A DNA stretch of 64,000 bases from positions 22,506,001 through 22,570,000 of the forward strand of contig CM114271.1 in NCBI GenBank assembly GCA_050084515.1. The letters are read 5' to 3'. The notes under the pieces are model-generated. The model was given only the letters and a program-made list of their open reading frames with translations, did no database searches and was not told the origin of the DNA. The DNA is from Blasia pusilla. Lineage: Eukaryota. Of the stretch, positions 9,337 through 61,021 are shown piece by piece. The first letter of the stretch is position 1. Every line of letters begins with the position of its first letter. A program made the position numbers and the translations under genes.

Positions 9337-9464
<128 letters not shown>

Positions 9465-37800: not shown

Positions 37801-38570
37801 TGTCGTACTCATACACATCGCTACACAACATACATCGCTGTCACCGAACATACACACAAATACACACAATCCCATGCTAACTAATGGCATCCAAACAACG
37901 AGACAAGAAGTACCAAAATATCTCCAATAAAATAAGATCCAATCTATTTCACAACACCATAGTTCTCACATGTGTGCACTCTCACATATCTCTCTCAATG
38001 TCAAACCAAACCCACTCTCCTAATGAGAGGCTTGGGTTACATTCACAAGGCAAGGGACCTTAGCCCCGCCGCCTCATGCCAAGAGGTTCAACAAAGAGAG
38101 AATGAGCTCTCAAGCTCTCTCTCCTTGAGGTATACCCCTCCCCTCTCCCAAGCTCTCTCCATGGTAACCTATGCTCCCAAGTCACCTCCTTGGCTCTGGA
38201 CCTGATGTAGGAGGTCAAGGGATACTTACCAAAAATAGAAAGTTGACCATATACTCAAAATGGTACTTACCTAAAATAGTAAGTTTCTCAACATGGCTCC
38301 AAATGAGCCGAAACGAAGGGGAAACCTTCTCTCAAGTTTCCCGGGGCCTCAACAGGTTATCCTCCATCTCCAGAGCCTTTCCTCCATAACTCGAGAAGGC
38401 GCTCTACTAGATCTCACCGATCTATTCTAGAAGATGTGACAACTATCGTGCGCATACACATCGCTACACAACATACATCATGTCACCGAACACACACACA
38501 AACACACACGATCCCATGCTAACTCATGGCATCCAAACAACGAGATAAGAAGTACCAAAATATCTCCAAT
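37801..38570 (-). repeat. 3' terminal block Y1-X2-Y2 of element B
   Basis: Y2 37801-37928 and Y1 38444-38570 are about 127-bp direct repeats. X2 37929-38441 matches X1 60496-60998. Confidence 0.9.
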
Positions 38571-38750
38571 CGCCCCCCTAGCTGGTGGTTAGGTTCCTCT
38601 AACTCCAAATAGCCATCTATCACTATCTACCATGACATACGTCTCTCGGACGCTAAGAGCAAGGAGGCCGGGTGGTCATGTGGCCCCATTGTTAGTCGCC
38701 TTCTTATCATCCATGTCACAGATACAAGTCGGAATATAGAACTACCTACG

Positions 38751-38895
38751 CTATGTACATCTGGGACACATCCATCGTCCCTGAGGAACCCTAGTGAGAG
38801 GTCGCGTCACACATGCCATATGCCATCCTCTCGAACATCCATCACAGATTAGCATAGTGGCTGCACCACGGGCGGAACCACACAACATACATCTC
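38751..38895 (-). pseudogene. PHD finger at the C-terminus of pol/integrase
   Basis: CMLC..MLICDGCSRGWHMAC..PLTRVPQGRWMCPRC, an intact C4HC3 pattern. Confidence 0.92.
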
Positions 38896-40292
38896 AAGCC
38901 TGCAGGAACTACTGCTAAGCTCAGATCAATTGTATCGTTAATGTTCGAAAGGTGACACGATGCACAGTTACGCACATGGTCCTTCCAAACCATACCATTG
39001 CGTCCCTCCAATAAGAGAACACATGATGGCAAAAACTCACGCACTCTCAAGATGGTGCCCCCTGTAGTCACATCCAACATCATGGGTGCCGTCTGTTGCA
39101 AGTAGACATAGTCTCTATGATGAAACCTCCGGATAGTAGGTCGATAACCCCCCCGTGAATAGTCACATACCTCAATGTATCCCGATGTTGCACAATCGCC
39201 AAGTTCTCAAACGCAATGGGCATCACTCTCCCAAATAATTCAGCCCTCTGAGAACATGTTCGCATCCATACATCAAGGTCATCAAGGTTTAACACCTCAC
39301 CAACATCTCGACGAATAGCCGCACGTAAATCTGGCTCTCCGCCATACAAAAGCAAGTCCGGTGAGAAAGATGCTAAGGATGCCTGTCTCCTTTAATCCCA
39401 TTGCCAACCATGGCATATGAAGGTCTCAATCTCCTAGGTGACCTCTCTGCAAGCCATACTTGCGTAGTCCTCTCTTCACCATCTACACAACCCGCTCCGC
39501 TAGTCCATCCGCCTCAGGATGATCTCGCGAAGTAGTGCGGTGGTCGATTAGTGCTTGATCACACAAGGCCTGAAACTCCCCGCAGAACTGTGTACCTTGG
39601 TCTGTCAACACCTCAGCTGGTGCGCAGTAATGACTCAGCACTCAATCTAGGAAGGCATATGCTACTCCCTCACTCGCTTTGTCAAGCAATGCAACCAACT
39701 CTATCCACTTCGAGAAGTCCTCAACCATCACCAACACATAACGACTATGGGGCTCCGTCAAAGGCAAAGGTCTTGCAAAATGCAAACTCCATCTATAACC
39801 TAAACCCATGATCGGAAGTGGATGCAACTGTGGAGTCGAAGCATTTAACAATGGTCGCACTCGATCACACACCTTACATCTGGCAACAAACTGTTGAACG
39901 TCAGTCTGCATGCCTTGCCACCAATACTGAATCTGGAGCAAGCTGTACGTCCTCTTCACTCCAAAATGACCAAACTCCTCGTGGGCATGACGCGCCCAAC
40001 GTATTCTCTGCAAAGTATGAGGCACTACACGCACTCTACCATCCTCCCACACTCGCAATACATATGTCCCCTCCCTTCCGAACTGTCTGGCTTGCTGTAG
40101 GATCCGATCCCACTCTCTAGCACCCACTCTGCTCGCGACGCTGCGAGCACGCAGGTACTCCAAGACCATTCCATCGTCGTGAATGTCTCGGCCACCTGTT
40201 GTCTCCTCACCGTCCTCTGGAACTAAGAACTCTCCATTAGACCTCGCCATCAAAGTCTTAGAAATCTGGCTCTCCATAGCCAACAAGTCCAA
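38896..40292 (-). pseudogene. Gypsy DDE integrase, frameshifted
   Basis: Zinc-binding region HEEFGHFGVKRTY..YWW.GM..DV..FVARCKVC; core YRWSLHFARPLP..YVLVMVEDFSKWIE. Confidence 0.92.
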
Positions 40293-40299
40293 ATAGGCT

Positions 40300-41530
40300 C
40301 ACGCATGCCATCATGGCACCAACGCCTCATTACTCTCACCATGCCAACGAGCTCAGTCACATCTCGTTGACTCGAGCATGGATGACGGCTCAAACCATCT
40401 GCATTGTTGTTGAGCGTCCCAGGTCTATGCACCACGTGGAAGTCATACTCTTGCAGCAGAAAAACTCACCTCACAAGTGTCCCTATGAGCTTGTCGGACT
40501 CCATCAACCACTTAAGTGGTTGATGATCTGGGTTAAGGGATTTAAGGGATTGCCAAATAGATAACACCTGAAATGCGCGAGAGCCCACACTGTAGCCAAG
40601 CACTCGTCCTCATACGAGCTATACTTTGCCTCTACAGCGTTGTTCAAGCAACTAGCGTAAGCCACCACGAACTCTCTACCATCATCGTCATGTTGGGTGA
40701 GCACGGGTCCAAGCCCCAACATGCTCCAATCGGTATGCAATTGGAAAGGATGCCCCCTGATCTGTCTCCTTAATATGGGCGCGGACGTCAATCTGTCCTT
40801 GAGCAGCTGAAATGCTCTCTCTGCTCATCCCCCTAGTGCCACTCCTGATCCATCTTGGTCAGCAAGGTCAGCGGCTTCGCAATGGAGCTGAAACCCTTGA
40901 AGTACCGTCGATAGAAGCTCGCCAAACCCATGAATGCAAACACCTCCTCTAGATGTCGGTCATGCTCCTCAACCGTCGCGCTAAAGACTACCATGTCAGC
41001 AATATAACAACTAGCAAAATCCAGACTTGCCAAGATCCTATCCATGACCCTCTCAAACTCAGCCGGGGCGTTCTTTAACCCAAATGGTAAGAACCGCCAC
41101 TAGTACAAGCAATCCTTCTCGTGAGGATCGATGCCCCAAAATGCCCTCCTCTACATGTTCTCCAATCTAATAGGCAGCTGATGGTATCCAGCTTAGAGAT
41201 CTAACAAACTGAAGATCTTTGCATGCCCAATAGCATCAAAGATTTCCTCATGAGTGGGCATGGCATACCTATCGGACTTTGTCTGCCGATAAATAGGTCG
41301 ATAATCTCCACACATCCGCCTATCCGTCGAGTTGCCATGCACATCCTTCTTGGCGGGCATGATAGTGGCAGATGCATACTCCCCACGTAACATCTCCATT
41401 AGTCCCGCTCCAACCAAGTCTTGGTTCCTACTCTAAATCAGGGCCTCTCTATGTCACTATTCCTGTAGGATTGTCCGAAGATCGGCGTGTCACTCGACAA
41501 CTCAATGCGGATCCCTGGACCCTTCAGCGT
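40300..41530 (-). pseudogene. Gypsy reverse transcriptase and RNase H, degenerate with an internal deletion
   Basis: KKD..RRMCGDYRP, KIFSLLDL, PFGLKNAPAEF, CYIAD (from YIDD), PFQLHTDWS..GLG.VL.Q, YSSYEDECLA, HRPG..NNADGLSR. Confidence 0.93.
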
Positions 41531-41999
41531 ACCCAAATCATGCATACTAAATGCAAAACAACGCCTATAACTCCTAAGGAACTGGTGTATCTAGCGTCGC
41601 TCTCCTCCTGTCAACTTAGGGCCCATATCATGCTCCCAAGTATCCATCGTGATAACGATAGGACTCTCTGGTGCGGGTGTCGGTGGTTGCTATGGTGCAA
41701 CCCCGTCTCGGACAACAAAACTCGACTGCTCCCTTGCATCCAACTGCAAAATCGGATCTCCATTTGCACTATCCGGAACCACGCTCGATGCTGTGGCTAC
41801 CATCTTGTGGCGTACTTGCAAAACATCCCAAGAAGTCCAAGGATGTCTCTCCCAATTACCCTTGGGATGTCGATCTGCTTGAGTCTCGCCCCCAACCATT
41901 GCCTCAACCGTCTCGGTAGGCATGGGGCTCACCAACATAACTGCTATGATCTGTCGTATCCTCAAACGATGCTGCTCAAGCTGCTCCTAAGCTGAAAAT

Positions 42000-42852
42000 C
42001 CATGTCAAGCAGTTCAGGTCCATTGTCTGACCTAAGACATAACGTCATGATGCCTCTGATAGTGACGGTATTGCCGTCACTCCTGGGGGGAATCCCATCG
42101 CTCGCTCTCGCTCATCGGCGTTGGGCTCCACCAACCTCTGTACCTAGTCATCCCAAACCAAGCCAGGTCCGGCCTCCTTGAATGAATAGGAAGCAAGAAA
42201 ACTCACAAATGTGGGAAAGGCTGCCCGTGGCATGCCAATCTTGTTGACCACAGTCAACGGCGGTCGATCATCGTGCCTCACTGCCTGTGATCAACGGTCC
42301 GGATCCAATATAGAATACACCAAAAAATCGGAGGGGTGCTCCACTCTCGCATATGCCCTCCGCAACACCTCGTGTGGTGCCAAGTTGGTCCACCAAAGAT
42401 GCGGGCGATGTGCTCGTGAACCCACACTCGCCACATCCAAAAAAATTGCCGAGCCGATCCATGCGCGTACCTGATGTGCACTCCTCACCACACGGGACCT
42501 CGAATCGCCCAAAATCAGTACATTCTCGAGAATGTATGCTGGAGGACGAGACTGATGCTTCTGCAAGTGTTGCAAGATCCGCATCATCTTCCAAAACAAC
42601 CAGGACCAAGAGTCAGCTAATCCGCTACCCTGTCCATCATTCGATTGGCCCTGATATGGCCAACCAGCAATGACCAAGTCTATAGTCGCTACTCGCTCCA
42701 AGTCTTGTGCCCCCAACAATGAAATGTCCCTTGGTAGGGAACTCTGGTAACCCTGAATGGCGGACGCAGACAACAAGTCGAGAAAACAGAGGCGTAACTG
42801 CGCCACATGGTGAAATAAAGCGCGCCTCGCAACATCATCAATCTCCACATAC
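42000..42852 (-). pseudogene. Cytosine-5 DNA methyltransferase domain of element B, C-terminal part (motifs II, IV, VI, VIII, IX, X)
   Basis: VEIDD, IDLVIAGWPYQG (PCQ>PYQ), YILENV, SRAHRPHLWWTN, EPNADERERAMGFP, YVLGQTMD. One reading frame with three nonsense codons. Confidence 0.92.
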
Positions 42853-43866
42853 CACTAGTAGAAAAGGGATCATTTTTAACCCATATCGTTGTTACTCATG
42901 TTACTTAGAGTCATTTGAACTACTCTTAGTTACTCTGAAACCCTCCTAGTGACTCATGAATTACTCACATGGTTGTGGAGTCATATTTAAATACTTTTTT
43001 ATTTTCATGAAAAATAATATTTTTTTAAGACTAATAGGAAGCCACTTTATCTCAAGTTACTTGGCATATACTTGTATAACAATGTAATGAACAAAATGAA
43101 GAATTTTTTTAATTAGTACTTCCAAAACATTTCATGGAATATATCATATCGGTCGCACTATATCTTGCAAAAACTGACAAAAATCTGATAAAACTAGAGA
43201 TTTCTTACAAAACCCTAAACTTCCAAGCCCGCGTTAAGCCCTCGTTTGTTGTTTTTGTCATTCCAGCCTTATCTCCCTTGCCCACCCCATGCGCTAAGCC
43301 CTCTTTCCTTGCCCGCGTTAAGCCCTCATTCGTCTTTCAACGTTCAAACCTTTTCCACTCGCGCTCTTCCATCTTCTCTCTTGAAAAATGCGTGTAGAAT
43401 GAGTGAAATAATCTTCACTCACTTTGCTACTACATTCGAGGGTACGAATGTTTGGAGATAATTTCTGCAAAGACTTTGTGAAATTGCAGCTCGGATAGCC
43501 CGATAGTGGAAGCTGCGGCCGGTTTGCTCTTAGTTTAATGTGGATGTTCATTTTCAACTACAACTGCATTTAGGGAAAGCTTCATAGATGGGTGTCGACT
43601 GCACACCATGGGGGAGAGAAAGAGTGCAAACCCCATCAGGTAGAGCCTTCACGAAGTCGTGGTGCTTGAAATTTATAATGATAGAGAAGAACGTCTTGCA
43701 ACGAAGCATTTAGGAGAAGCACCATTGCTCTACAATCATCTTGCTCTGAATTTCATTTCCTTTCAAAAATCATGTGATGCCCATAATTTTGTACTTTTGA
43801 AGAAATACATCTTTTTATTCAACGAAGACTTGTATATACATTATGATTTTAATTATTATATATTAT

Positions 43867-44975
43867 TATGGGGAGGAATGAGTAAGATTAAAGCGAATCA
43901 CAAAGCTCCAAGGGCAAGGCAGAGAGATAGAAAATCAAGGATTCGCCTAGGAGGAGAGGAGAATAAAATAACGAAGTCTCAAGACCCAGCAAGAAGCTTC
44001 GGAAGGACAACGAAGCTCTGTCTATGAAGTGCTTCGCTCTATAACGAAGCATGAAGAAGAAGAGAAAGAAGTACTTCGCTCTTGTACGAAGCACGAAGAA
44101 CAAAGCACCTAGAACAAGAACAAAGAATGGAGCGCTTCGTCTTCAGATCAGAAGAAAGAGCTTCGTCCTCAAGCAAAGCAAAAGAGGTCCAGACTTAGCA
44201 GCGAAGCGAAGCTAAGATTGACAATTATTTCAAGCGACACATAGTTAGAATAGTTAGAATAGGAAAAGACGCAACCCTTTGTATCAAATTGGTAGTTATG
44301 ACAGTTTTGTTCTGCGGATTCATAGGGATCATAGGAAAAGCAAAGAGCACCATAGATCTAGTTAGTTACAAATGTTGAAGAGACACCACCTTCATAAAAA
44401 ATGCTTCGAATCTTTGGATTAATCCTCCTTCAGAGAGTATTTAAGAAGCATAGAAGTAGCTATCGTTATCATTCTCTTACGACGTCCTTAAGCTGTAGGA
44501 ATGGTCCGAGCAAGGGAGTAGTACCCTCTCGAGCTTGTATACACATTGAAGCTTTCTCATTCTTGATGGAGTAGTAAAGCAATCATTCATTCATTCTGAT
44601 ATGCGATGATTATGTCTAAGTATTTTTTTTGGATCTCCACAATGAAGAATGAATCAAGGCGAACCTTTCTCATCAATGGAATAATCAACATAAAGCTGTA
44701 GGAAATCTGTTTGACAGAGAGTAGCCTGCCGAGACGGATTAAGTTCCGAAAGTAGGAGAAGCCCGCTTTCATGTTGAGGTCTCTATGAGGTTTCTTAATA
44801 TCGAGAGGAAATCTACCTAAATGTGTTGTCAACTTCATTAGAGAGAATTGAGAAAAGAAACTTTGTTACTAAGAAAGATCCGAAGATATTGATAAGACAT
44901 TGAATATAAATCATACAGATTTAAATACAACTATTACAATAGAATCATAATTTCGAACTCTCTTTTCATCAAACA
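43867..44975. mobile_element. Possible solo LTR inside the CACTA element
   Basis: Compositionally distinct CGAAG-rich block ending ..CATCAAACA. Candidate TSD ATTAT/ATGAT; 5' end TA rather than TG. Confidence 0.35.
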
Positions 44976-45992
44976 ATGATCCTCTTGGGGATCGAACTTA
45001 TTAAACGACTGTAAAATAGAAACTCTTGTACATTACAAATCAAGATTGTTCGGCTTCTGTAGCTAATGTTTTCATTTCAGATGTAGCTCCATCATTTCGG
45101 GTGTAGCTCTTGGTTCAAAGGTGGCTTGTGACTACACACATTGGGAGAGAGAAAGTCTACAAAACTCATAAGGTAGAGATTCCACCGAGCCTCTTTGCTA
45201 AATCGTTGCTATGAGATCATGGTGTTGCTTGAAATCCAATACGAGAGAAAAGAATAAGGTCTTGCCGTATTCCTGTTTTGGAGAAGCCGCATTGAATTTT
45301 TCTTGCGTACAATCATTTTGACGAAGCTGCATTGCTCTCACAAGCATTGCTCATACATTACCATTGATGTGCGCCTGAGAGCTGAATATCCATGTATTCA
45401 TCTATCTAATCCTCCGTCTCTCTCTTGATTGGAAGTTTATATTGCGTGTCGATCTTGAACAAATAGGTTGTACCTTCGGAAATCCAAACCAAATCGCCCA
45501 TACCTTATCTAAGTAGCACATTTTATTGCTTCTTGTTCTCTCATATTTGTGTCATAGCCGCCTTGGTTCTCTCCCCCCGCATTTTGCAATCAAGGCAATT
45601 GTGATTGCACATGATTGATTGGTAGCTGCACTTACAAACAGGGACACAAGCCGGAAGTGCATTACTACTCAACGACTCTAATTATCGCGCAATTTCTTTT
45701 TATGCTTGAATTGCATCCAATTTGGATAGACCCCAATGATAAAATCATGTACCAACCCTTCTAATTCAGCAATAGTGATATAGTGAAGAGATAATGGAGA
45801 GCTCCGGTGAAGAGATAATAAAGAGCTCTTGGTAAAGGGGTAAATCGGAAAAAAATCTAGAGCATTCATCTCCACCATCGGGCAATCCAGCAACAGTCCA
45901 TAGTCACACTGACATACATCACCTAGCTTGCCTCAGTACCTACATTGCCTTCCACCTGCATCCTTGAGTCACAGGAGCATCACATACATCAC

Positions 45993-46148
<156 letters not shown>

Positions 46149-47949
46149 AAGTGTTGGTGTAGAGACTCAAGTCTTAGAACTTGGAGGGGTTCCACTCCAA
46201 GTTTTGATATCAAACAAACAAGTTCAGGTTTCGTACCGGACGACAAGCCTTTTGGGAAAGAGAACGGTCATATTTTATAATTGTTGGTGGCAGGTAGAGC
46301 TTTGAAGGAGTCAAAGCATATAATGAGCAGGTATAAAAATCTAGAAGCTACGTTTTCCCTGGACGCGGTTAAAAAGGTATGAAATCTGATTGAAATTCAT
46401 GGGTTGTTTCCGTAGGAACTTATTGGATATCTTAAGGGTCATGTGCGTTACATAGTGGAATAACAAAAATCTCCCGTAAAAAAAAAACCCTCCTCAATAT
46501 CACACATCCCCTATACCAATCCATGAAAAGATCCATAGGTGGATACTTGAGGGAGAGGTGGACGATTTGTATGGTGACTTCTTTGTATACTTAGTTTTGA
46601 ACTACTCTTTTGTAGTTTAGTAAATATTTAGGGTATTCACTTGAATGGAGAGAAAGTTTTTTTGTCATTAAATATCGGCGCTTGTAGCCTTGTGCACCAT
46701 GGAGAGAGAAGTCTTAGGAATGTAACATCCTCCATGTCTTTGGATGGCATCAGAGTGATGGCGGGTGTTTCGTTTCATCCAATGGTTCAAAACGACTCAG
46801 GGTACTTTTTGTCCAGATTAAGGATCCTTCCTTTTGAAGTGAAGGTCAAGATCTTTACCATGAGCAAGCCTACTAGTCTGGACCGTGTCCTTGCCCTCCC
46901 ATAATCTGCAAGGGCAAACATTTGTTACTTTCATGCTTACTCTGAGCGTTATTGGACCCCAAATAGGTGACAAAGGCATACTACGAATTGGCTATTCCGC
47001 TTAGAAGATCGCCACGTGTATGTGCGATTTGTAGACATTTTTATGTGGAGGGAGGATAGAGGAGCACTATTAGCATGGCTAATGCTTGGGGTCACCCGCA
47101 AAGTCGCTCTTCATATATGTCATGATGCTGGGGGGATTCTCCTTGGGGAGGATCATCCCATTGTTAGGAAGGCACGAGCCAACATTGAATATGCGCGTTC
47201 TATCGGTGGCCATACGCTAGAGGTTATTCTTGAGTATTGTAGTACTTGGGAAGTTGTCACCTCGGGGGACTAAGTATGCATTCGCTCAAGTCGTAGAACA
47301 ATTTCAGGGAAAGTTTGCATATGTTGCCTAAACTTATGCCGTGATGTTGGAGTATGGCAACAAGTCAGATTTGTAGCCTAACTTGAGGCCCTTCATATGG
47401 CCAACAGGTAACATTTGTAATTGACAACAATAAGACAATAAGAGGATCCATTTTAGCGAGTCATTGATTGAGTCACCGTTATTTTTCTTCATTGATGGAA
47501 TTGGGCTTATTTTGAGGGACCATGGTGTATGTACACTCTTGACCTTGGACGATAAAAGATGCTATTACGGGGATGTATGCAACCAAATAATAAATAAGAA
47601 GTAATGATTTCTGTAGAAAACAATTGCTTGTCATGCTATTTAACTTTCACTTGTTCTATGTACAGGTACCAAAGGATTGACTATTGGAAATCCGAGTATC
47701 GTGAAGGCTATAGGTAACCTCCACATCCACTGAAATCCATTTTTAAGCTTTTGTTTTCCATGCCTAAATCATGGACATTCAATATCCATAGAATTTCTGC
47801 ACCTAATAGTAATCTTATTGTCTTTTGTGCCGAAATGTAGGAGTAACCAACGTACAAGGATGGCGCGCCCAAAATACCAGGCCAAAAAAACTCTCGAGGT
47901 GAGCACTTATGCACCATATAGTGCACTCCAGACATTTGCACAAGGAAAC

Positions 47950-48519
47950 CCATATTTGTGCAATTTGTGATGATGGGGAAGACCTGGTTGTTTGCAACGG
48001 GCCTTGTGCCAGGCACTTCCACGCAACTGCAGAATCGGCGGGGGCTATAGAGAACTCTTCTCCAAGGGTCAACCTCCCACCCAACCACGAGGGGAGCTGG
48101 TTATGCGCCAAGATTGTGTGAAGCAAATCGCCAAGTATGCCAAGTGTGGTCTAGAGGGGAGTTTTGGAGAGAGCGAGGATTCTGGGGTTCGTGTGAGAAA
48201 GTGCCCGAATACCTTTTGTGTGAGATTTTTTTGCTTTACTTTTTTGCCTACAGGAGTGGAGTCTTTCCCCATCCATTATTGCCCAGAATTCCATAAGCAT
48301 GATGAGGAGTTGTGGGAGGACATGGTCTATTGTCCTAGATGCCCCACTGCATGGCATTGGACTTGCTTGAAGAAGGCTATGAGTAAGGGTTATGCATGCG
48401 ATTGGATTATATATGACCATGCTGCATGTGGTGAGGATAGGTGGTGGTTCTATTGCCACGAGCATAAAGTTGATCCCACACTTCAGACTCCTTTGAGAGA
48501 TCATATTTCATGGATTTGA
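47950..48519 (+). pseudogene. EDM2-like composite PHD-finger module carried by the CACTA element
   Basis: ICAICDDGEDLVVCNGPCARHFHAT, one frameshift near 48105, then KCPNTFCVRFF..PIHYC..YCPRCPTAWHWTCL..FYCHEHKVDPTLQTPLRDHI. Confidence 0.82.
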
Positions 48520-49477
48520 TTTTCAGGTTGGCGGATGAGAGATCCGTGTCTGAACAAAATTCCGTGGCATTTTGGTGGAGAGTGCAGGGTAGCCACTTTT
48601 GATATAAAGAGGGTCGAGGCTCTAAACATGCTAACTAGGTAGGTGGTATGACTTCGTATAGAGACTTGCCATTACCTATCCTGTGTATTGAGAGTTACAA
48701 TCTTTTGAAATTTTGACCGAATGGCCATAATTGCAAAACTATATAATATCAAGTTTTGTATGAACATTATGCATTAGACATGTTTTGGAAGAATGAAATG
48801 TAATCGTGGTGGTTTCTAAAAGACTCTTGTGATTAGGCTCTTGATTAGGATGTGTCCGGTTGTAGGTGGAATTCTGTATTCACTCGTCATCCATTGCCAG
48901 ATCCAATCATGCAAGTATAGCTTTAGAGCTAGGTAGCCCATCATGGAAAAATATTGGCAACACAGTACCAAAATGAGAATTGTTGAGCTTCCCCCACTCC
49001 CAAGTGGCGGTGTCTCTAAAGTGTTAATGTGTCATGAGACCTCACCCGGATGCGCATCGGGTACGATGCCAACCTCTCTTTTTGCAGGGATTGTAGCCTG
49101 TATCATGGCCTCCCTTGAATTGCCCCATGATAAATGGTGTCAGCTTAAGACAAACACTTGTGAAATTGGGTGGGAGAGAGACTGATTGTCTCCGTGATGC
49201 CACACATGGCATTTCTGGGAATTGGGTAAGAGTTTTGGAGAATTTGAGATGGACCATCCTGAATTCCCAGAGGAATGAACGCGGTGTTAAATATGTCCAC
49301 ATAGATTGGTTGTCCTTGTCCATCCAGGATGGAAGATTGCATGACCCTGACGACCATGATTTATTCCAGAGTAAATCAAGCTCGGTGGTTGTTCTGAAGG
49401 AGAAGAAATTGTATTGGAAGAATGTGAGGGAAGGGAAACCACTCCCAACTGGTCCGCCACCCACTCCACATCCAACC

Positions 49478-49755: not shown

Positions 49756-50199
49756 GAAACAAGCCATTGAAACAACCATACCGGATCAACCAAGTCTCTG
49801 GAGACATGGAGGAGCTTACAGATGAGTGGCAAACCACAGATGACAAAGAAATAGATTCCACCAGTTTGGATAGTTGCGAAAGTAGTGCATATACCGTGTA
49901 CTAAGACATGTTTTTTTGTATTCAATGTGGGTTCCATCTCACTGATTTTGCCTTAATACCAGGTTGCTTGAATATGTCCACATGCAGTGACTACATTCCA
50001 AGTTGGCCAATCAATTGTATAAAGGTGGGGAATATCAACAACCTCGCCCATTTTTGTTACCACCCTATAAGTTTATAACCCTATTTTTTTATGGTTGATA
50101 GTGAAGTTTGGTATCTTTAGGGTTTCATGGATGTCCCACCTAGCCCTCCCTAATGGGGGAAAAATGCTCATCATCATGCACCCATAGGCAATCCTCCAC

Positions 50200-51764
50200 A
50201 CCACTTCGGACCTAGAACAAGCAGGTTACCATTACAACATCCAGAACGGATCAGAGCTCGTGATTCCAAACTTTGGGATCGGAAGCAAGTCCTAGTGGGA
50301 CACTCTAGAAGTGCAAGGATGAGATATCCTTGTGTAGCTTGCAATAGGTCTCGCACATAGGCCTTGCAGAATGTTTTCACTCACCTTCAAAAATGCGGAA
50401 GGCATCCAAAAAAAAGAGTTTATGGAGTTCTAGGCGATGAGGACTCGTCTGATGAAGAGTGGAGGTCCGCATCAAACATTGCCAATGCGGCTAGACATGC
50501 ACAATTTTTGGGACAAGCAATGGGCAACCTCAATGCCCGAGATGCGGGTGAGGCAGGTAGCACACTCGAGAAGTTTGAAGACAATAACCATGATGATGGG
50601 GTTGATGTTGAAGGTGATAGTGTTGATCATGGGATTGATGTGCAACGAATGGTCCGTGACATCTTCCAAGATCGTGATGCATTCTATGATGATGTTGAGA
50701 GCATGGAAGACATCACTGATATAGCCAAAGAGGCTGGAGAGGACGTAGATGATATTGGGCAAGAAGAGGACGAGTAGGGATGGATGTTTGGGTCGCATGA
50801 AACTGTTGCTGATGCATGCAGGCCTCTGTTCCATGGCTCTAAGTGTACAAAGTTGGCCTTTGTACTCATGTTGATGAACATCTGTGGGAAGCATGGTGTC
50901 CCAGTTGTGTTTGTTTCAAGGTTACTTGCATTCTTGAAGACAACAGTCTTTTCTATTGGGAACATGGCTCCTAGCAATAAGTACGAGGCAACTAAATTAT
51001 TGTCAAGTCTTGGATTGAATTACTGTTCCATTCATGCTTGCCCTGATGGCCATATGGTCTTCAGAGGAGAGCATGAAAATCGATCAAGTTGCCCAGTATG
51101 TGGACAAAAAAGGTATCGGAATGTGGGCAAGTCCATGTAGCCCACAAAGGTACTTTGACATTTTGAAATCATTCCTAGATTGAAACGGATGTACAGCAGC
51201 CCAAAAATTTCAAAGTTGATGACTTGGATAGTCGAGAACAAGAGTATCGATGGCCTGCAGCGGCACATCGGAGATTCAGAACATTGGAGGTTCATCGACC
51301 AGAGATGGCCAGAGTTTGCAAGAGAGACAAGGAATGTGAGAGTTGGCCTCTCGACCGATGGAGTCAATCCATTCGGAGACAAGAAAAATGTATATTCTTG
51401 CTGGCCTGTATCCGTGCTGAATAACAACCTCCCTCCGTGGTTGACTACTAAGAAGTTTTTTGTCTTATTGGCTTTGCTTATCCCGGGCCCATAATCTACT
51501 CTTTCTAGGAATATAGACGTTTGGATAGCTCCTCTTGTGGATGAGTTGAAGCGCTTGTGGTACAAAGGCATTGGGATCCATAATGTGGTGCAACGGGTTG
51601 GGAGACCAAACCCATTTAGGCTACAAGCCTTATTGATATTGACTTTGGGAGATTATCCAGCCCACGACATGATTTCACGTCATGCAACAAAGGGGTATTT
51701 GGCTTGTACTGCATGTGGCCCCAATTTCACTGGTGAGCTTGCCATCGGTGGCAGAATCTACTGA
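50200..51764 (+). pseudogene. CACTA TnpD (Tnp2) transposase, 3' truncated
   Basis: IHACPDGHMVFRG..CPVCG..RY, IIPRLKRMY, RHIGDSEHWRFID..RNVRVGLSTDGVNPF..SCWPV..NLPPW..LIPGP, IAPLVDELKRLW, GDYPA..KGYLAC..C. Confidence 0.93.
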
Positions 51765-52360
51765 TGACATTGATGCTCACATTGGAGGTGAAGAATCTCC
51801 CACTTGTGATCCACAGTTTGTTGTAGGCTTTGGTGAAGAGGATCAATCATGCTCAGATGAGCTTTCGGCTCCTAAGGAGCCCTGTCCATCAACAGTTGGG
51901 GGAAAGAAGAAGCAAGTAATTTCTCCGTTTCAATTAGACAAGATGTGTGTCTACAATTTTGTTTCAAGGTTAGTGGCATTTGAAATAAATTGTCTCTAAT
52001 CGGTGGGTTGCATTGCATTGGCAGAAAGGGACAGTTGGAGGGGAAGCTACTTGGGCAAGGGATGTTGCACCCGGGCGTGTACCTGAAAGTCGTATTCCTC
52101 TCAAACAGCAAGTGGGTGTACAATATAGTGGAGTGGGACAGGAAAGCATGTCTCAGGGTGGTAGAGATGGACCCTATGCACAGAACTCCAAGCCAAGTTA
52201 GTTATACGGTGGATATTGTCCAACGGGGCAAGGGTGGAATAGTACAAATCTATCCATTTGCAATCTCAAATTTCTCTTTCATTATACATCATAGGATGAT
52301 GGTGGGAAGGTTGTGTGATGTGTCTATACTACACTGACATATATATCATATGTAGACTCT

Positions 52361-54750
52361 ATGCAGGGTGGATTCTCCAACTACACCGAGGGACCCTATC
52401 ATGCAGTGCCAAATAGTCAAGATCGGTTTGGAAGTAGTCAATATCTTTATGGACTCAATAATAGCACTCCAGAAATGTATGGACAACCTCAATGGTTGGG
52501 GCTAGGACCCACTCAAGGAGTGCAAATGACAAAGGCTACAGGTAATAGCAAGTCACGTATATATAGAGAAGTATCATCCCTATTTGGAGAATTTCTTCCA
52601 AGTGTTTTCACTAATTAGTAAGTGATCTGACATCGATGCATAGAGTCGGCTTGTAGGCATAAAGATTTGCAAAGTGGGCAGTAGTCCACTTTGCAAATCC
52701 TGAAGACTTGACTGAAGACATTCATACGACTCTAGGCTTGCGACGGGCAAGCGTTGGGACAACATACACACCAAACTCAGTGACTGGGAGCAGTGTCGAA
52801 GGCGAGGGGGTGAAGGTCCGAAAAGTGGGTGTGAACAACTTTGGTTGGATCACCACAACTTCAGAAGGAAAGAATAGGTGGTATGCAGATTTTAGAGTCG
52901 AGGTGTTGCGATGGCTTGACATCTCCATTGTGAATTTTTCAGACCAACAGTGAGGGGATTGGAATTCGGTGTTGAGTGATATTTCTGCTAGATGGGAGTA
53001 TGTTGGAAACAATGGCAATAGAGTGCCTCTTCCATGTTTGGAGGAATATGCACAACGAATACTCAAGACGGAGAGATTTAGATTGCGTTAGACATGGAAA
53101 GAAGCTGGAGAAGGCAAGAAAGTGGCCCCACCACCTCATATAGACCCCAACCAATGGGGGAGATTACTTATGCACTTCATGAGCAAGAGTGCAAAGACAA
53201 AGAGTGAGCAGATGTCCAAAGCACGGGCAGCGGTGACCAATCTAAACCCTGCAGGAAGAAAAGGGAATGCACCAATTGTAGAGCGCCTAGTATGAATAAT
53301 ATTGAAGGACACATCTTTAATTTCTATTACCACCATGCATATAGTTTTGCAATTGGTGTTTGGTAGACTAAACTTGGTTGGTGTAACATGTGTTGTAGAG
53401 AAAAGAGAAGGGGCAAACCCCTACTAAGGCGCATGTGCATGAGAAGCCAAAGAACCAAAGGAGTTATGGTACAAGTCCAATGTCAAAGCAGGTATTTGCA
53501 TCTAGTTGCTTTAGAGTAGAGTTGAATCTAGTGTATTTCTAGTACATGCCAATTGATATAGACTGAGATCCAGGTTTTGTATTTCAGCGCTAGGAACATC
53601 AAAGATGACGGAGATCTCTGCCCGATTAAAGTCTATGGAGGAGTTGTTGCCCGAGTCTGTGACTTACATAATTGATCGCATGGATGCATTCTCCAGCAGT
53701 TTGGACGTGCTAGAGGCAAGCATAGAGACTTATGTTGCTAATCAACAAGAGAACTTCATAAAGTTGATGGAATTGATTTCCATGAGCTTGAGAAGGGACC
53801 ATGAGGACATAAGGGGTTCCAAGGAGAGATCGGAAAATCCAAGAGTTGTATCCTCTCCTCATGGAGTTAGTGATCGAGACCCTACTCCTAGTGGAGCACT
53901 TGCCTCTATGCCGTTGAGTGTATCCTCTCCTCACCCAATCACAGGACCACCTTCAAGGGAGAGTGCACCCTCTCCGGAGCTGGTCACTATTGTGTCTTCA
54001 CCTCCAATTCTTCCACAAGTTGCCAAGGGTGTTCATACAGTAAGAGGACTAGATACAATTTTTGGCATTGCACCAACTGGTCCAAAGAAAAAGGGAGCCA
54101 CAAAAGAGGTTAATGCTACTATGTTTGCGCGTGATCCTTTGAGTTCAGGTATGTGAGTTAAAGTGATGTTGTGCATTTTACTTTGAAGTTGTTGAAAATC
54201 ATGATCTATTTGAAAGGGTAGTTAAAGTTTCTTGTTGATTGTGATTGTAGAGACCACAGATGAGGCCCCGGCCGTTGTAGGCAAACGCCAGGGTAGGACA
54301 TTGCGGAGATGCAATTTGGAGGCCACGGTATTTTCAGAGGAGAATGAGGAGAGTGCAAGGATGTTGGAGGGTGGTGGACCCATGGAGTTGGATCATTTGG
54401 ATCTTCTACAAAAGCCAATGGTGGTGAGAAGAGCGACACTTAAGAAGAGGACCCGAGAGGCTACCAAGCCGGTGTTGAAATCTGTTGTGCCTCTGTGGCA
54501 CCAGTTGATATCACGTGAGAACCCCTCTGTGGTTGTAGGTTATGGCAGCTTGCATGATGGTTGTTCTACTTTCCATGGATGTGACATTCCACATGGGCAT
54601 TCTGTTCTCCATTTGAGAGAAGTCTACAAGAAGAAATATGTATTGCCATTTCCAAATATGGTTGACGATCCACCACAGATTTATGTTGGAGATGTCATTG
54701 ATAGTGTAGTGTTATGGCCATCTCATCTTGTTATGCCTTCCCAGAAGTAG
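52361..54750 (+). pseudogene. CACTA TnpA-like second gene, spliced and degenerate
   Basis: PPHIDPNQWGRLLMHF..KTKSEQMSKAR....PAGRKG (Ptta/En/Spm type) at about 53130-53270; a coiled coil; C-terminal FHGCDIP..LPFP..GDVIDSVVLWPSHLV. Confidence 0.7.
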
Positions 54751-55845
54751 GGGCACCTTCGCTTTGTGTGTAGAATTTTTTAGTAAACCTTCCCTTTGAC
54801 ATCCCTCTTGAGTGTGGCGATCTCCATATACTTGTAACTTTTGTACTCATAAGTAGAGGAACATGATGTTTGTGTTTCAATTTTGAGAATATCAAAGGGG
54901 GAGTTTGCACTGAGAAGTAGATTTTGTGTTCTTCCATTGATGAGCATCTTTAACTATAATTCATTAGGCATTCTTCTGACGTAAGAAAATAGTCCATTTC
55001 AAGATGTATGGATACACTGTGTAGCTTTGGACTTACTGCCACAATTGGATGTAAGAAACATTTGCTAGCTGTATCTTTCAATAGATAAGGATTTTTTACT
55101 GTGAAAAACTGAGCTGATCAGATGCTACAACATGGATGGGTTGGTACATGAGTAATGTGCTTGTATGTTTTCACACGATGCTGGTAGCATTAGGACTATA
55201 CAACAGATACATAATGGCATCTCCATTGCATGGACGTAAGAGAAGTAGTGATAGGTGCAGGGAGGGTAGGTAGGAAGGATTAATTCATATTCATGGATAC
55301 AAAATGGACTAAAATGCCAATTTCATTTACATATTCTTGTCAACAATAAAGCAATATGTCATACATAATGACTGGTATAGTTGTTATTTGGATATTATTA
55401 GTGAATAGGATTGTAAATGACATGGAAAAGTCATTTTAATGACTCTTAGTCATTATTTTATGACGCATGAAATCATTATTTATTATTCTGAGTAGTCACT
55501 CTTAATGACTCGCCTAATCATTATTAATGACTTGTCTAGTCAATTCCTAATGAATCTAGTCATTCTTGATGAATCATCTAATCAGTCCTTATGACTCTTC
55601 TAGTCATTTCTTATTACTCGTCCAGTCATTTTTTATGACTTAACCTAGTCATAAAAAATGACTAGATGAAGTCATATTTAGTGACTATGTTGAGTAACAA
55701 AAAAGAGACTCATAAATGACTACCCTCGGTTTTAGTAACAACTTATACGACTAGGAGTAATTTTTATTACTAGAGTCTGGTTAAGTAATTACTTAATCAC
55801 ACAGGCCCGGTTTGAGTAACATCTAGTCATTTTTTTGTACTAGTG

Positions 55846-55990
55846 TACAGGTACTGCTGCACGCGCACTCCAACGTGCAAAACAGAAGCTAACCCAGTGT
55901 TGATCCCTCCAAAGAGATCCAACACCTGAATACCCTCCTCTTGGATGCACCACACAATCGGGGTGGTGTCCAAAGGGGTGATAGCGGCAC
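55846..55990 (-). pseudogene. DNMT domain N-terminal part (SAM-binding motif I)
   Basis: EEGIQVLDLFGGINTGLASVLHVGVRVQQYL; joins in frame to YVEIDD after removing the CACTA element and one TSD copy. Confidence 0.92.
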
Positions 55991-56299
55991 TCCTGCCTAC
56001 CTGGGATTCCTCTGACCCGTCACACTCTGGTGCAAACGTCTCGCTCCACGCAGTCTACACATGCTCAGTGGCTAAGCGTTGAAGCTCCTCAACCGAGCCC
56101 CAAAGCGGCACCTCTCCTCCACGGACTGATGTGGCTACCATGACACTCCTCTCCATAGAAATGTGAGGAACGGGAGTATCCTCTGCATGGACATGTCCCT
56201 CAATAAAATCAATAGGCCAAGTGATGGCAATGCTAAATGCTGCTAAGGTCGCCATCTCTCCTGGCGGTCGCTCGATCACTGCACATGTAAATCGAACGG

Positions 56300-56720
56300 G
56301 TAATGATCTAAGGCGCCCATCACCTGACTGCCATCCTAGTCTATAGGACACCCACTCCTCCGAGTAATCCAGGGAAAACCCCATCGGGTATAATACTGCT
56401 CCACCAACCAAGACGTCGTAGGACTCTGCATCAGTCACTATCGCCTTGGCTCACACCACGAACTCATCTATAGGTTGTCTCGGGCGAATCCTAACCACAA
56501 CCTCATGTTGGGTGATATACTGTGTGATACTCACTCCAAGGATGTCTGTATCCGGAATGGACAATGCTCCACATCGGCTCTCGTCAAGCCCAATCCTCTA
56601 AATGCCACTTTCCCCAACATCATGGGTTGCGCTCTTGAATCCAACAAGACGCGTTGCGGACTAAAAGCTCTACCTCCAGGACTCACCAACTAGAAGACTT
56701 CTCCCCGATTATCCAGCAAC
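56300..56720 (-). pseudogene. Retroviral-type aspartic protease of element B
   Basis: PQRVLLDSRAQPMMLG (LLDSGA with G>R) and YDVLVGGAVL. Confidence 0.8.
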
Positions 56721-57349
56721 ACAACACCAGGAGAAGCCATGGCACACTCTATCGCGGGTCTAGCGGGCATCTCCGCCATCCTAGCAGCCGTAGCGTGCTA
56801 TGAATTTGAAGTGGACACCCCGAGCATCCGCTCCAAGGGTAGGCCCATCACCTCCTCTGCAAACACCTCAGAACATGATGCAAGAACTCCAACTCCACGC
56901 TCACCTAATGTAGTGGCCAGCCAGAACACCTCGGTGGGTGTACCTCCCAATGTCATAACATTGGAAGCAGAAAATAGCAAAGCACGGTACACCATCGTGG
57001 CCGCCCCCAACATCGTACTCGACACATGCTTCTCCTGAGCATCACCAATAGGAGTCGTTGCACTCATTTCTCCCATTATCCTCCGTGCTTGCACACCAAT
57101 AACATCACCAACTCTCCGGGAACTCTGATCAAGACCCATCGATGGGATCCTCATGGCCTCCGATAATGTGAAAGATTGAGAAAGCCTGGTCTGTTTCGTG
57201 GCTTCCCCTCGCTATTGATCCAACTCTGCAGTTGCTCCACGCGTCACAACTGCGGCGGCCTCCATCTGGGCAACCCTGCACATCCAACCAGGATCCTCCA
57301 TATCTCTAGCTGCTCCATATGATGTCGATGCCACGGATCCGGCATCCGG

Positions 57350-58681
57350 TAACCTCAATGCCGTAGTGGCCCTCTGCTCCTATAGCTACTGTAATCGAGC
57401 AACCATCCTAGCCTCACGCCCGGCGTCTCCCTCGACGCGTCTAGGTGGTGGAACTCTACCTCCTCCACCGGCAACTCCACCACCCTGTCGGGCAACTCCA
57501 ACTCCTTGTCCCCCAACGGGACCACCTGGTGCACGACCTCTAGGCCCACTCGGACGTGCAACTCGCTCTAGTGCCATCTCGGGCCCTTAGTCCCGACATA
57601 ACTCAGGGTGCAAGCTGAAACATCTCGCGCGTGTATGACCGTACCTTTGACAATAGTCACACTGATAACCTCCTGCTATAGCACCATCTCCTCCTCCATG
57701 CTGAGGCAGAAGTCCATGACCCTAACGAGTGCAATCGCGGTGATGATGGGCTCCACCACATGACCAACAAGTAATCATAGACGGCTGATGTTGAGCCGCA
57801 TATGAAGGTGCAAGTCTCTGTGGTACGGCCTCCTGATATCCTCCTTGAGCTCGTGGTGCCACAATCAACCTATCTCGAAGTCCACGTTGCTGCATGGGTG
57901 GTGTAGACAATCGTGACTGCTCTTGCCCAGAACCCATGGTGGCTACGCTCTCCTCCGCCATGTTGCGCTCAATATTCTCGGTGGTCATTAAAACAACTCT
58001 CAACGTAGGGGAGATGTTCATAAGAAGCACCCTCCGTACCCGTATCCGCAGGGTCCAATCCAACATCGCGTACCATGACTGTATAGCATGAGCCTCTGTC
58101 ACCCCCTGAATAACGTTGATCAACCAGCATAAGTGAGTGGAAGCCTCACACAAACTCTCACCAGGGCGCCTCTGGAAGTCGTGGATGCTTCGCAACTTCT
58201 CCGTCCATACCCCCTGGTAGCTTGCCCTCAACTCAGCGAAGAACTCAACCACGAGGTTGAACCTTGGACGAACCCGACTAGACAGTGCAATCGCTCCAAT
58301 GCGAGTGACCCCTCCTAAAACATCACTAGTGGAAGAGTAAGCAACCTCTCCTAGCTCCTCCTCCTCCTCATGTGGGAATGGCTCCGTCCATGACTCATAG
58401 TGTGGATCATAACACAGTCGCCATGTCTCAATCTCTTGGGCATATCTGTGGGAGAACTCATGGTAATCGTCCATGGGCGCCCCCTCTAAATGCTAGAACA
58501 TATGGTTCCATGCTATAAATGGGTTGAACTCTTTAGAGTTCCTAGCCCGTTCTGAGTCATACCAACTCCTAAACTCTACAATGAAGTCGTGTAGCTCTAT
58601 AGTGCCTACAACACCCGAAAACCTACGCGGTCCTCTACCCCGATCATCCATCTCATACGCCCAACTGGTAGGACCACTCAA
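57350..58681 (-). pseudogene. gag of element B with two CCHC zinc knuckles
   Basis: PRRFSG..LHDFIVEF, FQRRPGESL, CWSCGGAHHHRDC, CDYCQRYGHTRARC. Confidence 0.85.
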
Positions 58682-60495
58682 TGTGTATGATGGATGACTA
58701 ACACAATCCTCTTCACGCTCTCACGTGGAGATCCTCGAAACCTCGCACCACTCCGGGTAAACCCTCCAGAGCTACTCTGAGATCCACTACCTTGCCTCTC
58801 AAAATCCCAAAAAGATGCCATGATGACCCTCATGTCCCTTTCTCGCAATCACTCTCAACCTCGCCTGCAATCACTCGATCACTCACTTTAACATGCGGCA
58901 CTCAAACTACACTCTCTCAGTGAGACGTGTATTGTGCGGCAACAAACGGCGTGGTGCGAAAATAGGCTAATCTATCATCTCATCGACAAACCATCCTCAA
59001 CTCAAGACATCCCACACAAGCCTATGTCCCCTAAACCCATACATCATCGACGCTCTCACCATCAGCACGAAACCCAATATCCCAAATAACTTCCCAATAC
59101 CTGGAAATCCCCCACACATGCAGGGTAAGAGACCAGAATGGGTAACGTGACAATAATGTCGATGTCGCTCCTCAACAACTGCAAATCTCAGCCCAACTCG
59201 GTCGTGAAGACAACTCCTCCAATTGGCAAGTCGTATTGCTCTTGTACTGACGTTGCTCAAACCTCCTCAATGTGCGGTGTAGGTCCAGCAGTCCGATGCA
59301 CCATTGGCGGCATGAAACAGCATGAACGACACTCGAGAATGGGGTGTGGCACTCGGTGGCATACCCTCCTCAATCAGCAATTCACAGGCCTTGCTCCTTA
59401 GTGAAGGAGTGGCTCCATGATCGAGACGATGCGATGCGGCCATGAGCGGCACGGGGCGGCAATCAATGGCGCGTTGCGGCTACGGGCATCACGGCAGGGT
59501 ACTCGATCGTCGTCGAGCGGCTACAAATCACAACATAGCAACATAAAATGAAAACTCAAACACCATAACCCGAGGTCACATGCCATCACTGGTTGATGAC
59601 GAAACTGCGATGACCGTGGCGGCCAAAACAAAGTACGTGGTGGCGGCGCAAGTCAAAGAATCAACAGTCATCGTGGAAGACCCTCCACTCCATAATGGCG
59701 GCAATGGCAGCCAAGGGTGGACAAAGGCCAAACGCGGCTTTGAGCACCGCTAGGCGGCGATGGTGGCCTACGGTGGACGATGGACGGTGGATAGTGGACC
59801 GCTGACGGTGACGATTAACCGTTGATGGTGATGGTTGACCGTTGACTGTGAAGGTTGACGGTCGATGGTCGATGGTAATGGTTGACCATTGACGACAGAC
59901 CATTGACGGTGACTATGACGGCGACAGCCATCGCCGGCGAGGCGGCTGGTTTAGGGTTTGAACAATTTAACCCTAAAAATCACCTACCAATTGCAAGATT
60001 GACCATAAATTTTTGCTTGCAAATCCAAATTATGCACCGTCTAGTGCATAACTTGCACAGATTTACGATCTACGACAGTCTTAAAAAATATTTTGAATGG
60101 ACATTTGAGTAAAAATTGACTGGGATTGTTGTAAAGCCCAACGTCTCTTTCTCCTCCACAAAAATCTGGCAGCGCTTTCGCGCTGATTTCTCACAACTAA
60201 GATCTAAAACCTATGAGAACACAAATCAGCAAGCTACATGGTGCTCCTAAGAGCACCGGCATGGAGCAATCCCCCCCATACTCAATTTCTATCAAAAATT
60301 GGGCAGCGCTTCCTCGTGCCACTCTCCCGTACAAAAAATCAACAATGCAAAACAGCAAACTCGCATTGCTCTTGCTCCGGTGAGCACTCCCATGAGCCAC
60401 AAAGCAGGGAACACGGTCCCCCAACCTACACCAAACATCAAGAAACCTGAGAGCTCCCCCATGAAGCTCTCTCACTTGCTCAATTCTCTCTTTGT

Positions 60496-60998
60496 AAAAT
60501 AAGTTCCTATCTCTCTCACAACACCATAGTTCTCACATGTCTCTCTCAATGTCAAACCAAACCCACTCTCCTAATGAGAGGCTTGGGTTACACTCATAAG
60601 GCAAGGGACCATAATCCTGCCGCCTCGTACCAAGAGGTTCAACAAAGAGAGAATGAACTCTCAAGCTCTCTCTCTCCTTGAGGTATTCCCCTCCCCTCCC
60701 CCTACTTCTCTCTCCATGATAACCTATGATCCCAAGTCACCTCCTTGGCTATTGACCTCAGGTAGGAGATCAAGGGCCACTTATTAAAAATATAAATTTG
60801 ACCATATACTCAAAATGGAACTTACCTAAAATAGTAAGTTCCTCCATATGGCTCCAAATGAGCCGTAACGAAGGGAAAACCTGCTCTCTCAGGTTTCTCA
60901 GAGCCTCAACAGGTCATCCTCAACCTCTTGAGCCTGTCCTCCATTTCTCGAGAAGGCGCTCTACTAGATCTCTCCAATCTATCCTAAAAGATATTACA
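60496..60998 (-). repeat. 5' terminal repeat X1 of element B
   Basis: Direct repeat of 37929-38441 and inverted homolog of 36381-36886. Confidence 0.92.
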
Positions 60999-61021
60999 CG
61001 CATCCTATTACTGAGTATCGT

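Follow-up and report, generated by a model that had tools for sequence, protein, structure and literature searches.

A Gypsy retrotransposon in the genome of Blasia pusilla carries split direct repeats, in the order X-coding-Y-X-Y, in place of the two identical long terminal repeats (LTRs) with which LTR retrotransposons are taught to end and whose outer ends the integrase joins to the host. The element lies on the - strand of a 64,000-nt stretch of DNA (GenBank assembly GCA_050084515.1, contig CM114271.1, positions 22,506,001 to 22,570,000 of the forward strand), here called the window; coordinates are window positions unless a locus is named. The X...Y-X-Y layout characterizes both the family and the clade around it, and a lineage with a DDE integrase breaks the rule of two identical LTRs in many copies and several families. 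As to its origin, the sequences make it reasonably probable that the element is a degraded member of the Gypsy-DNMT3 lineage of streptophytes, that X...Y-X-Y is the normal integrated form of this lineage, and that integrated copies are circular permutations of a self-primed complementary DNA (cDNA) with the terminal repeat Y-nn-X, where nn stands for two nucleotides.

Read on the - strand, the element opens with X1 (60496-60998), a 5' repeat that starts with TGTAAT and contains a TATA-like box and a predicted primer site. As had been noticed in the original prediction, X1 is followed neither by Y nor by a primer-binding site (PBS) of the TGG type, but by the leader, gag and pol. At the 3' end, a polypurine-like tract TAGGGGGGCG (38571-38580, its G6 run at 38578-38573), kept in the related loci shown, lies immediately 5' of Y1 (38444-38570, ending CACGATA). 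A 2-nt spacer, GT (38442-38443), within the palindromic joint ..GATA-GT-TGTC.., separates Y1 from X2 (37929-38441), which starts with TGTCAC and holds a copy of the primer site at 38102-38091. Y2 (37801-37928, ending ACGACA) comes directly after X2, the border consisting of X end and Y start with zero extra letters. The target duplication is perfect: the 4 nt after Y2 (37797-37800) are TGCG on the - strand (CGCA on the + strand), identical to those at 60999-61002. The limits of these repeats, the G6 run, the spacer and the duplication, as first proposed, were all confirmed to the base. X1 and X2 are 85.4% alike over 519 columns (blastn, E 9e-173), Y1 and Y2 are 92.9% alike over 126 columns (E 4e-49), and the termini of the element are TG..CA. 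Because the 5' end has X but no Y and the 3' end has an additional Y ahead of X, and because the PBS described below follows X and the polypurine tract (PPT) precedes Y, the element departs from the usual Gypsy plan of two whole LTRs with a PBS after the 5' LTR and a PPT before the 3' LTR; its order is that of the split direct repeats of DIRS elements, A-coding-B-A-B. Ty3 has ordinary LTRs and a tRNA primer.

Related copies in metagenome contigs establish how general this layout is. The contigs were scanned with an alignment of the piece coding for the integrase and its PHD finger, which matched 252 stretches, of which 175 were confirmed; the best 80 of these 175 (L001-L080), representing 62 distinct loci, are the basis of all locus counts below. 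A scan of the metagenomes with a 28-nt exact word from X gave 0 matches. A long form, PHD-PPT-Y-nn-X-Y, was found at 18 of the 62 loci, and a short form, in which PHD-PPT-Y is followed by unrelated sequence, at 30. Two more loci show a snap-back form, one contig ends shortly after the start of Y-nn-X, and at two loci Y is interrupted by another insertion. No Y was recognisable at the remaining nine, seven of which have at most 701 nt beyond the PHD match; L031 has a partial Y, truncated where the contig ends. The layout is shared by at least four sequence families: the main family, that of the window, that of L035 and that of L071/L074. Where a 5' end is available (long forms L032, L036, L038, L067 and L061/73; short forms L008, L015, L025, L041, L043, L047 and L068), just one X occurs, 3.8-10.3 kb upstream, with a leader after it. 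At none of 14 5' ends (these 12 loci and two in the window) does Y follow X, or Y-nn precede it, and copies with ordinary X+Y LTRs, which would have made the window copy a local oddity, were thus not seen among them.

The X1 and X2 sequences of different copies intermix, all copies being 86-94% alike, so that X is renewed from one template per round, as LTRs are; separate X1 and X2 lineages, which would have meant a lack of LTR-like renewal, were rejected on this ground. X2 of L016 (1239-2411) and of L018 (1385-2557) contains an inserted repeat of about 820 bp. At least 20 other loci have copies of this repeat, in either orientation (positions 354-1173 of X_L016/X_L018); it is an unrelated mobile element that is abundant in the metagenome host.

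The same joints are found in the host itself. Public reads of the same species label were mapped onto 36300-39300 at a likeness of at least 80%, a stretch that ends short of the focal 5' leader; run X18 consists of raw reads, sampled at about 1 in 100, and 48,553 of its reads were placed. Y end is joined to X start in 211 X18 reads (139+25+47), with 90 more that 'go back' across the joint, and X end is joined to Y start in 515 (47+191+83+101+93). Of the reads that overhang X start (867), the consensus is Y end + GT + X start with an agreement of 0.51, about what a mixture of X starts preceded by Y and X starts preceded by flanking DNA would give; the 1,921 reads that overhang Y end have a poor consensus (agreement 0.40), as expected for varied flanks. 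Joints and overhangs together mark Y end and X start as the termini of the family and the Y-GT-X joint as common. With hundreds of such reads and 18 loci, the suspicion that the layout was a family trait rather than a one-off deletion is borne out.

Approximate X18 depths, counted in both orientations, are 3,300-4,400 for X2 (about 1,600-2,000 in the two end bins), 1,250-2,250 for the X of element A (a second element in the window, described below), 4,500 for Y2 and 2,700-3,800 for the 3' internal region, which gives a ratio of X to Y to 3' internal region of about 2:2:1. The family is very abundant in the host, as about 1% of one run already gives depths in the thousands. In the leader of element A the depth is 25-60 beyond about 120 nt, which limits what the reads say on the frequency of 5' junctions in the host. 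C-to-T and G-to-A together make up about half of the changed places in every run (291+274 of 1,094 in X18), a pattern that fits the decay of methylated cytosines in the Gypsy-DNMT3 family of the window.

Several observations assign the element to the DDE integrases, as had been proposed. Perfect 4-bp target duplications flank 9 of the 11 related elements with both ends available, four of them long (CATA, AAGG, TCTC, AATC) and five short (ACTA, TGTT, TACA, ATTA, TTCA), in addition to the window copy; L068 matches at 3 of 4 letters and L041 has no duplication. The coding region was scanned with Pfam in the three - strand frames of 38571-48470 and 50500-60495, with stops read as the residue letter X, and yielded, in this order, a C5 DNA methylase, RVT_1, RT_RNaseH_2, Integrase_H2C2, rve and a PHD finger. 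The integrase with its H2C2 domain, DDE core and C-terminal PHD finger (about 38890-38756) occupies 38754-40352; the consensus line of the relatives shows D..D-35-E, the first D being H in the focal copy. Reverse transcriptase and RNase H lie at 40531-41653 and are frameshifted, and a Dnmt3-like C5 methylase at 41979-42851 (Pfam DNA_methylase, E 7e-7, about 42728-42495), in which the PCQ motif has become PYQ. Gag, with two CCHC knuckles, and protease gave zero Pfam matches at E <=0.01; tblastn with the relatives P0005, P0006 and P0019 located their remnants, with many stops, at 58636-55845. Pfam order and tblastn map together give the Ty3/Gypsy pol order protease-reverse transcriptase-RNase H-integrase. 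As the many stops, the frameshifts, PYQ for PCQ and H for the first integrase D indicate, the focal copy is old, broken and dead.

Among solved structures, the best match of reverse transcriptase-RNase H-integrase of the relative P0036 is the Ty3 Gag-Pol chain 7q5b (E 9.7e-92), and those of the methylase of P0023 are DNMT3A/3B (E 1e-12). For P0010, a Protein Atlas comparison reached a best score of 0.79, below the threshold of that tool. The best proteins for the methylase piece (54-62% identity) and the nearest for the integrase-PHD piece (61-75%) are from Marchantia polymorpha, Calypogeia fissa and Sphagnum, and some methylase relatives carry RVT_1 and RNase H on one chain with the methylase.

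The signals expected for reverse transcription lie at the borders of the split repeats. The first 12 nt beyond X1 (60484-60495, - strand), ACAAAGAGAGAA, are predicted to be a self-priming PBS, as they are complementary at 12 of 12 positions to a site within X1, TTCTCTCTTTGT (60642-60653, - strand), which would be both the RNA 5' end and the primer and on which the fold of the leader closes; none of 300 shuffles paired as well. Pairing is again 12/12 in L015 and L036 (0 of 300 shuffles as good) and 11/12 in element A, L043, L047, L067 and L068; in the main family, ACTCAAAGAACT pairs with AGTTCTTTGAGT. The X site stands directly before TGA[AG]CC, about 30-40 nt after the TATA-like box. The letters of the PBS vary between families while the pairing is kept, L061/L073 showing, on reading by eye, paired changes on both sides. 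From the X site to the PBS the RNA is predicted to fold with a closing 13-bp stem, for which the window gives a z of -2.66 with none of 200 shuffles folding as well, the RNA 5' end being assumed.

Since the PBS pairs with a site in X, priming looks independent of tRNA and similar to the self-priming of Tf1 and Sushi elements, a possibility that had been raised for this element and that the pairing supports. A tRNA-iMet PBS motif was not found near X1 (three matches with two mismatches, all elsewhere and below chance). ARAGORN detected no tRNA genes in the window or in any of 40 loci, and thus no host tRNA with which to compare the leader. A tRNA-like reading, by eye, of the TGG-containing stretches of the leader was dropped, there being no T-arm pattern in them.

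On the other side, the PPT tract ..AGCTAGGGGGGCG.. adjoins Y1 in the long-form copies examined, and the G6 tract is next to Y1, not X, in every long-form locus shown. PPT and joints were compared in 19 cases, of which 13 (12 loci and the window) could be resolved; five had no exact Y2 match and one no G run. In 9 of the 13, Y starts 2 nt past the G run, and likewise in 9 of 13 the X2/Y2 joint is made of the X end, whose limit is given by the PBS border, and the Y start, whose limit is given by the PPT border, the two being directly fused. The main family, for example, has ..TTTTC + AGTTGTGG at this joint, and the window has ..TTATTTT + ATTGGAG. The joint is one letter off in L012, L017 and L036 and not clear in L071; in L038/L042 it is aberrant, with a 17-nt filler and two extra letters from the PPT side.

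The other joint, Y1-nn-X2, forms a near palindrome, ..C[AG][CT]GA[CT]A-nn-TGTCA.. (GACA-RY-TGTC), with a spacer that in the window and its relatives always has 2 nt, a purine and then a pyrimidine (GC, AT, AC or GT). The R-Y pattern may reflect an original GC that has since decayed by C-to-T and G-to-A changes. The idea that the spacer records the flank of the parent copy was rejected, as spacers are unrelated to the copies' own target duplications. The original prediction had likened this joint to that of a pre-formed circle: it does bring together the right end, 2 nt and the left end of the integrated element, but the end joint of the cDNA itself would be X2/Y2, because Y1-nn-X2 lies inside the repeat defined by PPT and PBS. 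As an observation apart, 35 nt at 35385-35419 (- strand) resemble the final 35 nt of Y at 91-97%, end in ..GCAAGACA and are preceded by unrelated sequence with a TATA-like box; they probably form the terminus of a different family with the same integrase end.

The two snap-back copies, L001 (1619-1799) and L014 (3699-3878; L019 is the same locus), are independent insertions. In both, X2 and the PBS lead into X in reverse complement, which runs from around position 181 down to position 1 and stops at GGTCATGACA before the flank; the left ends of both copies lie outside the contigs. Such a structure is what one would expect of a plus strand that has the PBS at its end, folds onto the primer site and is afterwards cut at a junction site.

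These elements can be assembled into a replication cycle, every mechanistic step of which is inferred from sequence. Transcription would start in X1 at the primer site, and the RNA 5' end would pair with the 12 nt after X1 and prime the minus strand, as in Tf1, which has an 11-nt primer and an RNase H cut. The G6 tract before Y1 would prime the plus strand. The cDNA would then begin on the left at the PPT border and finish on the right at the PBS border, so that its terminal repeat should be Y-nn-X. The target duplications show that integration uses X start and Y end, which meet at the palindrome within this repeat; integrated copies would therefore be circular permutations of the cDNA. This suggests that the integrase cuts inside the repeat made by reverse transcription, not at its ends: it would use the palindromic ..GACA-RY-TGTC.. 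at the Y/X border, so that copies begin with X and end with Y, and two nicks, one past each CA and 2 nt apart, could open the palindrome into a ready left and a ready right end. The short form X...Y would result if a linear cDNA were cut at both of its internal sites, or a one-repeat circle at its only one. The long form X...Y-nn-X-Y would require the X end and the Y start of the cDNA to be joined prior to cutting, since it contains their blunt joint X2/Y2; joining might occur by ligation or by a polymerase running from one end onto the other, the source being a two-repeat circle or DNA extended past the right end. A circular intermediate is a reasonable inference from these joints. As only the long form keeps a downstream X, only this form would give a terminally redundant RNA for a further round.

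A number of observations weigh against this cycle. If a two-repeat circle were cut at random, the other permutation, X-Y-nn-X-leader...Y, should be about as frequent as the long form, yet it is absent from the 14 5' ends. Short forms (30 loci) are commoner than long ones (18) and would be incapable of a further round, although they may be later deletions between Y1 and Y2. X1 and X2 differ at 240 of 1,875 columns (12.8%) and Y1 and Y2 at 34 of 528 (6.4%), although two pairs that were each identical at insertion should have diverged equally; the cause may be local gene conversion or the scarcity of C in Y, given that C-to-T and G-to-A changes dominate the read differences. Pairing of the PBS falls to 8-10/12 in the old copies L008, L025, L032, L038 and L041, with 25-280 of 300 shuffles as good. 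The fold of L036 is weak (z -1.76, 11 of 200 shuffles folding as well), and the RNA 5' end in these folds was of our choosing. Lastly, the read joints given above are among 15 listed of 274, and host joints of PPT to X may be among the rest.

The missing permutation is what one would predict if cDNA ends were never joined and termini were restored in the manner of DIRS elements: the RNA would run from inside X1 to inside Y2, Y1-nn-X2 would be an internal template restoring the outer parts, linear DNA with X start and Y end would be integrated, and short forms would come from later Y1/Y2 deletions. The layout is indeed that of the split direct repeats of PAT and Ngaro elements, in which the internal junction is held to restore the ends (PMC7192593), and deletion is plausible between Y repeats of 115-127 nt lying about 340-510 nt apart. 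Such a scheme, however, offers no account of a PBS next to X1, of a PPT next to Y1 or of an X2/Y2 joint that is the sum of both borders. The L038 joint has PPT-side letters and filler, and the snap-back copies show a strand running from X through the PBS. Nor are short forms more diverged than long ones (0.102 against 0.096, p 0.63, a comparison of low power between copies from about the same burst); that short forms are older was accordingly rejected as an idea, on a weak test. We regard restoration without joining, the chief rival of the cycle above, as rather unlikely.

The remaining explanations fare much worse. A one-off local rearrangement, by tandem LTRs or unequal crossover, in an ordinary X+Y LTR family with a tRNA PBS and a PPT before X might be suspected in a copy so old and broken, with X1 and X2 only 85% alike; the joints recurring in hundreds of host reads and 18 distinct related loci, the 14 5' ends without X then Y and the G6 tract adjoining Y1, not X, in all long-form loci shown already refute it, as far as these data go, and we give it hardly any credence. 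Integration by a tyrosine recombinase of the DIRS, PAT or Ngaro kind, encoded elsewhere or unrecognised, with the DDE integrase as a relic, would suit the repeat layout and the presence of a DNA methylase, which DIRS and PAT also have, though of a different kind. Yet there was no Phage_integrase match in the three - strand frames of 38571-48470 and 50500-60495 (48471-50499, between them, being inside an inserted CACTA transposon) or in the proteins of five relatives, and the 4-bp target duplications of 9 of 11 relatives and the window copy, the TG..CA termini and the D..D-35-E kept in relatives all point to the DDE enzyme, which makes this origin very improbable. An assembly artefact, the Y-X-Y arising from collapsed or mis-joined repeat reads, comes to mind with so abundant a family, the setting in which assemblers err. 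But single reads of 150-170 nt span each joint and the same order appears on independent contigs from several metagenome assemblies, so we attach practically no weight to it.

The layout was at first thought foreign to DDE Gypsy elements, which proved wrong, as it is already in print for KnitGypsy-Dnmt3 of Klebsormidium nitens, an element with a Dnmt3 inside Gypsy pol whose legend (Fig. 4c) gives DIRS-like repeats A-coding-B-A-B together with Gypsy domains (de Mendoza et al. 2018, PMC5890265). The name 'Gypsy-DNMT3' for the elements of streptophytes is used in a 2026 preprint (bioRxiv 10.64898/2026.05.21.726589). The focal element shares with KnitGypsy-Dnmt3, compared by description, the Dnmt3-type C5 methylase in Gypsy pol and the A-coding-B-A-B order; KnitGypsy-Dnmt3 belongs to a charophyte alga, whereas the relatives of the focal element are from liverworts and mosses. 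No Klebsormidium sequence was among the named protein matches of the methylase and integrase-PHD pieces. A PHD finger follows the integrase here, and the word PHD is absent from the main text of PMC5890265. The description of KnitGypsy-Dnmt3 consulted here gives no target duplication, PBS, PPT, short form or mechanism, and supplementary Figs 13-14 may hold more. In the part of the literature covered, we found no description of split repeats on a Gypsy element beyond that paper and, for Gypsy-DNMT3, no published account of 4-bp target duplications, a self-complementary PBS, a G6 PPT at Y1, a blunt X2/Y2 joint, the GACA-RY-TGTC palindrome or short X...Y forms.

Three other systems resemble the element in part. 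PAT-like, Ngaro and TOC1 elements share the A1-ORFs-B1-A2-B2 order and an internal B1A2 junction made of right end and left end, and DIRS and PAT elements carry a DNA methylase (PMC7192593). Elements of this order use a tyrosine recombinase and make no such target duplication, in contrast to the DDE integrase, TG..CA termini and 4-bp duplications found here, and the methylase of DIRS and PAT is Dam-like where ours is C5 and Dnmt3-like. Self-priming has been predicted for the Tcn1 elements of mosses and club-mosses (Neumann et al. 2019, PMC6317226), which like Tf1 and Sushi have a PBS complementary to the predicted start of their own RNA and not to a tRNA; these elements have ordinary LTRs and a chromodomain, and the focal element has split repeats, a PHD finger and a methylase. 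Integrases of PFV and HIV-1, finally, are reported to cleave the palindromic 2-LTR circle junction (PMC1180852, PMC1905944, PMC4372172), which like Y1-nn-X2 brings right and left ends together as ..CA-nn..-TG... The retroviral junction has a spacer of 4 nt, against 2 here, and occurs only in circles, as a side route, whereas here it is a standing part of every long copy, where its cleavage is suggested by sequence.

More broadly, we entertain, as a tentative possibility, that a Gypsy lineage of streptophytes moved the recognition ends of its integrase to a palindrome within the repeat made by reverse transcription and must hence integrate from circular or longer-than-unit cDNA, like an integrating pararetrovirus; it would be a DDE counterpart of DIRS, independently reached. 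Should the scheme of a self-primed Y-nn-X cDNA cut at an internal palindrome hold, a natural element would have as its main route what in retroviruses is a disputed side reaction, the cleavage of end-to-end junctions by integrase, and DIRS-like split repeats would have arisen twice, with two unrelated integration enzymes. It is pure speculation that the element's own Dnmt3 and PHD finger act on the episome, or shield the standing internal cut site from its own integrase. In practical terms, LTR finders that seek two like LTRs and a tRNA PBS will mis-bound or miss such elements, the short X...Y forms having no LTR at all. A 2019 opinion paper holds methylase-encoding transposons to be absent from land plants, naming tracheophytes (PMC6338049); the proteins from Marchantia, Calypogeia and Sphagnum place methylase-carrying retrotransposons in bryophytes, and hence in land plants.

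The focal element owes its 23.2 kb to a foreign insertion in pol, without which it would measure about 10.2 kb. This is a CACTA (En/Spm) DNA transposon of 12,993 bp on the + strand (42853-55845), with Transposase_21 (E 9e-47), inverted termini CACTAGTA.. and a 3-bp target duplication, TAC. It interrupts the pol reading at one residue, and by tblastn the reading resumes at the next residue at 42851. Weak NSD-like PHD matches were seen in an upstream frame of the CACTA transposon.

Element A lies on the + strand, its X at 36381-36886 and its PBS at 36887-36898 (36381-36898 in all). Its body runs from 36887 to 37796 and, the focal element being inserted in its leader in opposite orientation, resumes at 61003, reaching 64000 and continuing beyond the window end. 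Its X is 80-82% like X1 and X2, and its gag is 79.6% like the focal gag (62314-64000 against 59305-57661). It had been cited as an independent element in which X is followed by the same non-Y sequence; this part stands, as the first 50 nt or so after X align and 36391-36930 matches 60989-60451, but the two are not wholly independent, given where the focal element sits. The leader of element A is about 1 kb longer than the focal leader, and read depth over it is 25-60 at 37007-37612 and then 250-620 at 37613-37814, before the focal insertion site; element A probably has a further insertion or a different leader variant.

Elsewhere in the window, 17457-18115 holds a tandem array of a 68-bp unit, with at least seven overlapping copies 62-91% alike. 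Long inverted repeats with arms of 100-800 nt, 77-85% alike, occupy 25741-27754; they represent a foldback-like structure or else one repeat present as two inverted copies. Two (GA)n/(TC)n microsatellites, at 9337-9464 and 45997-46146, match each other as inverted repeats.

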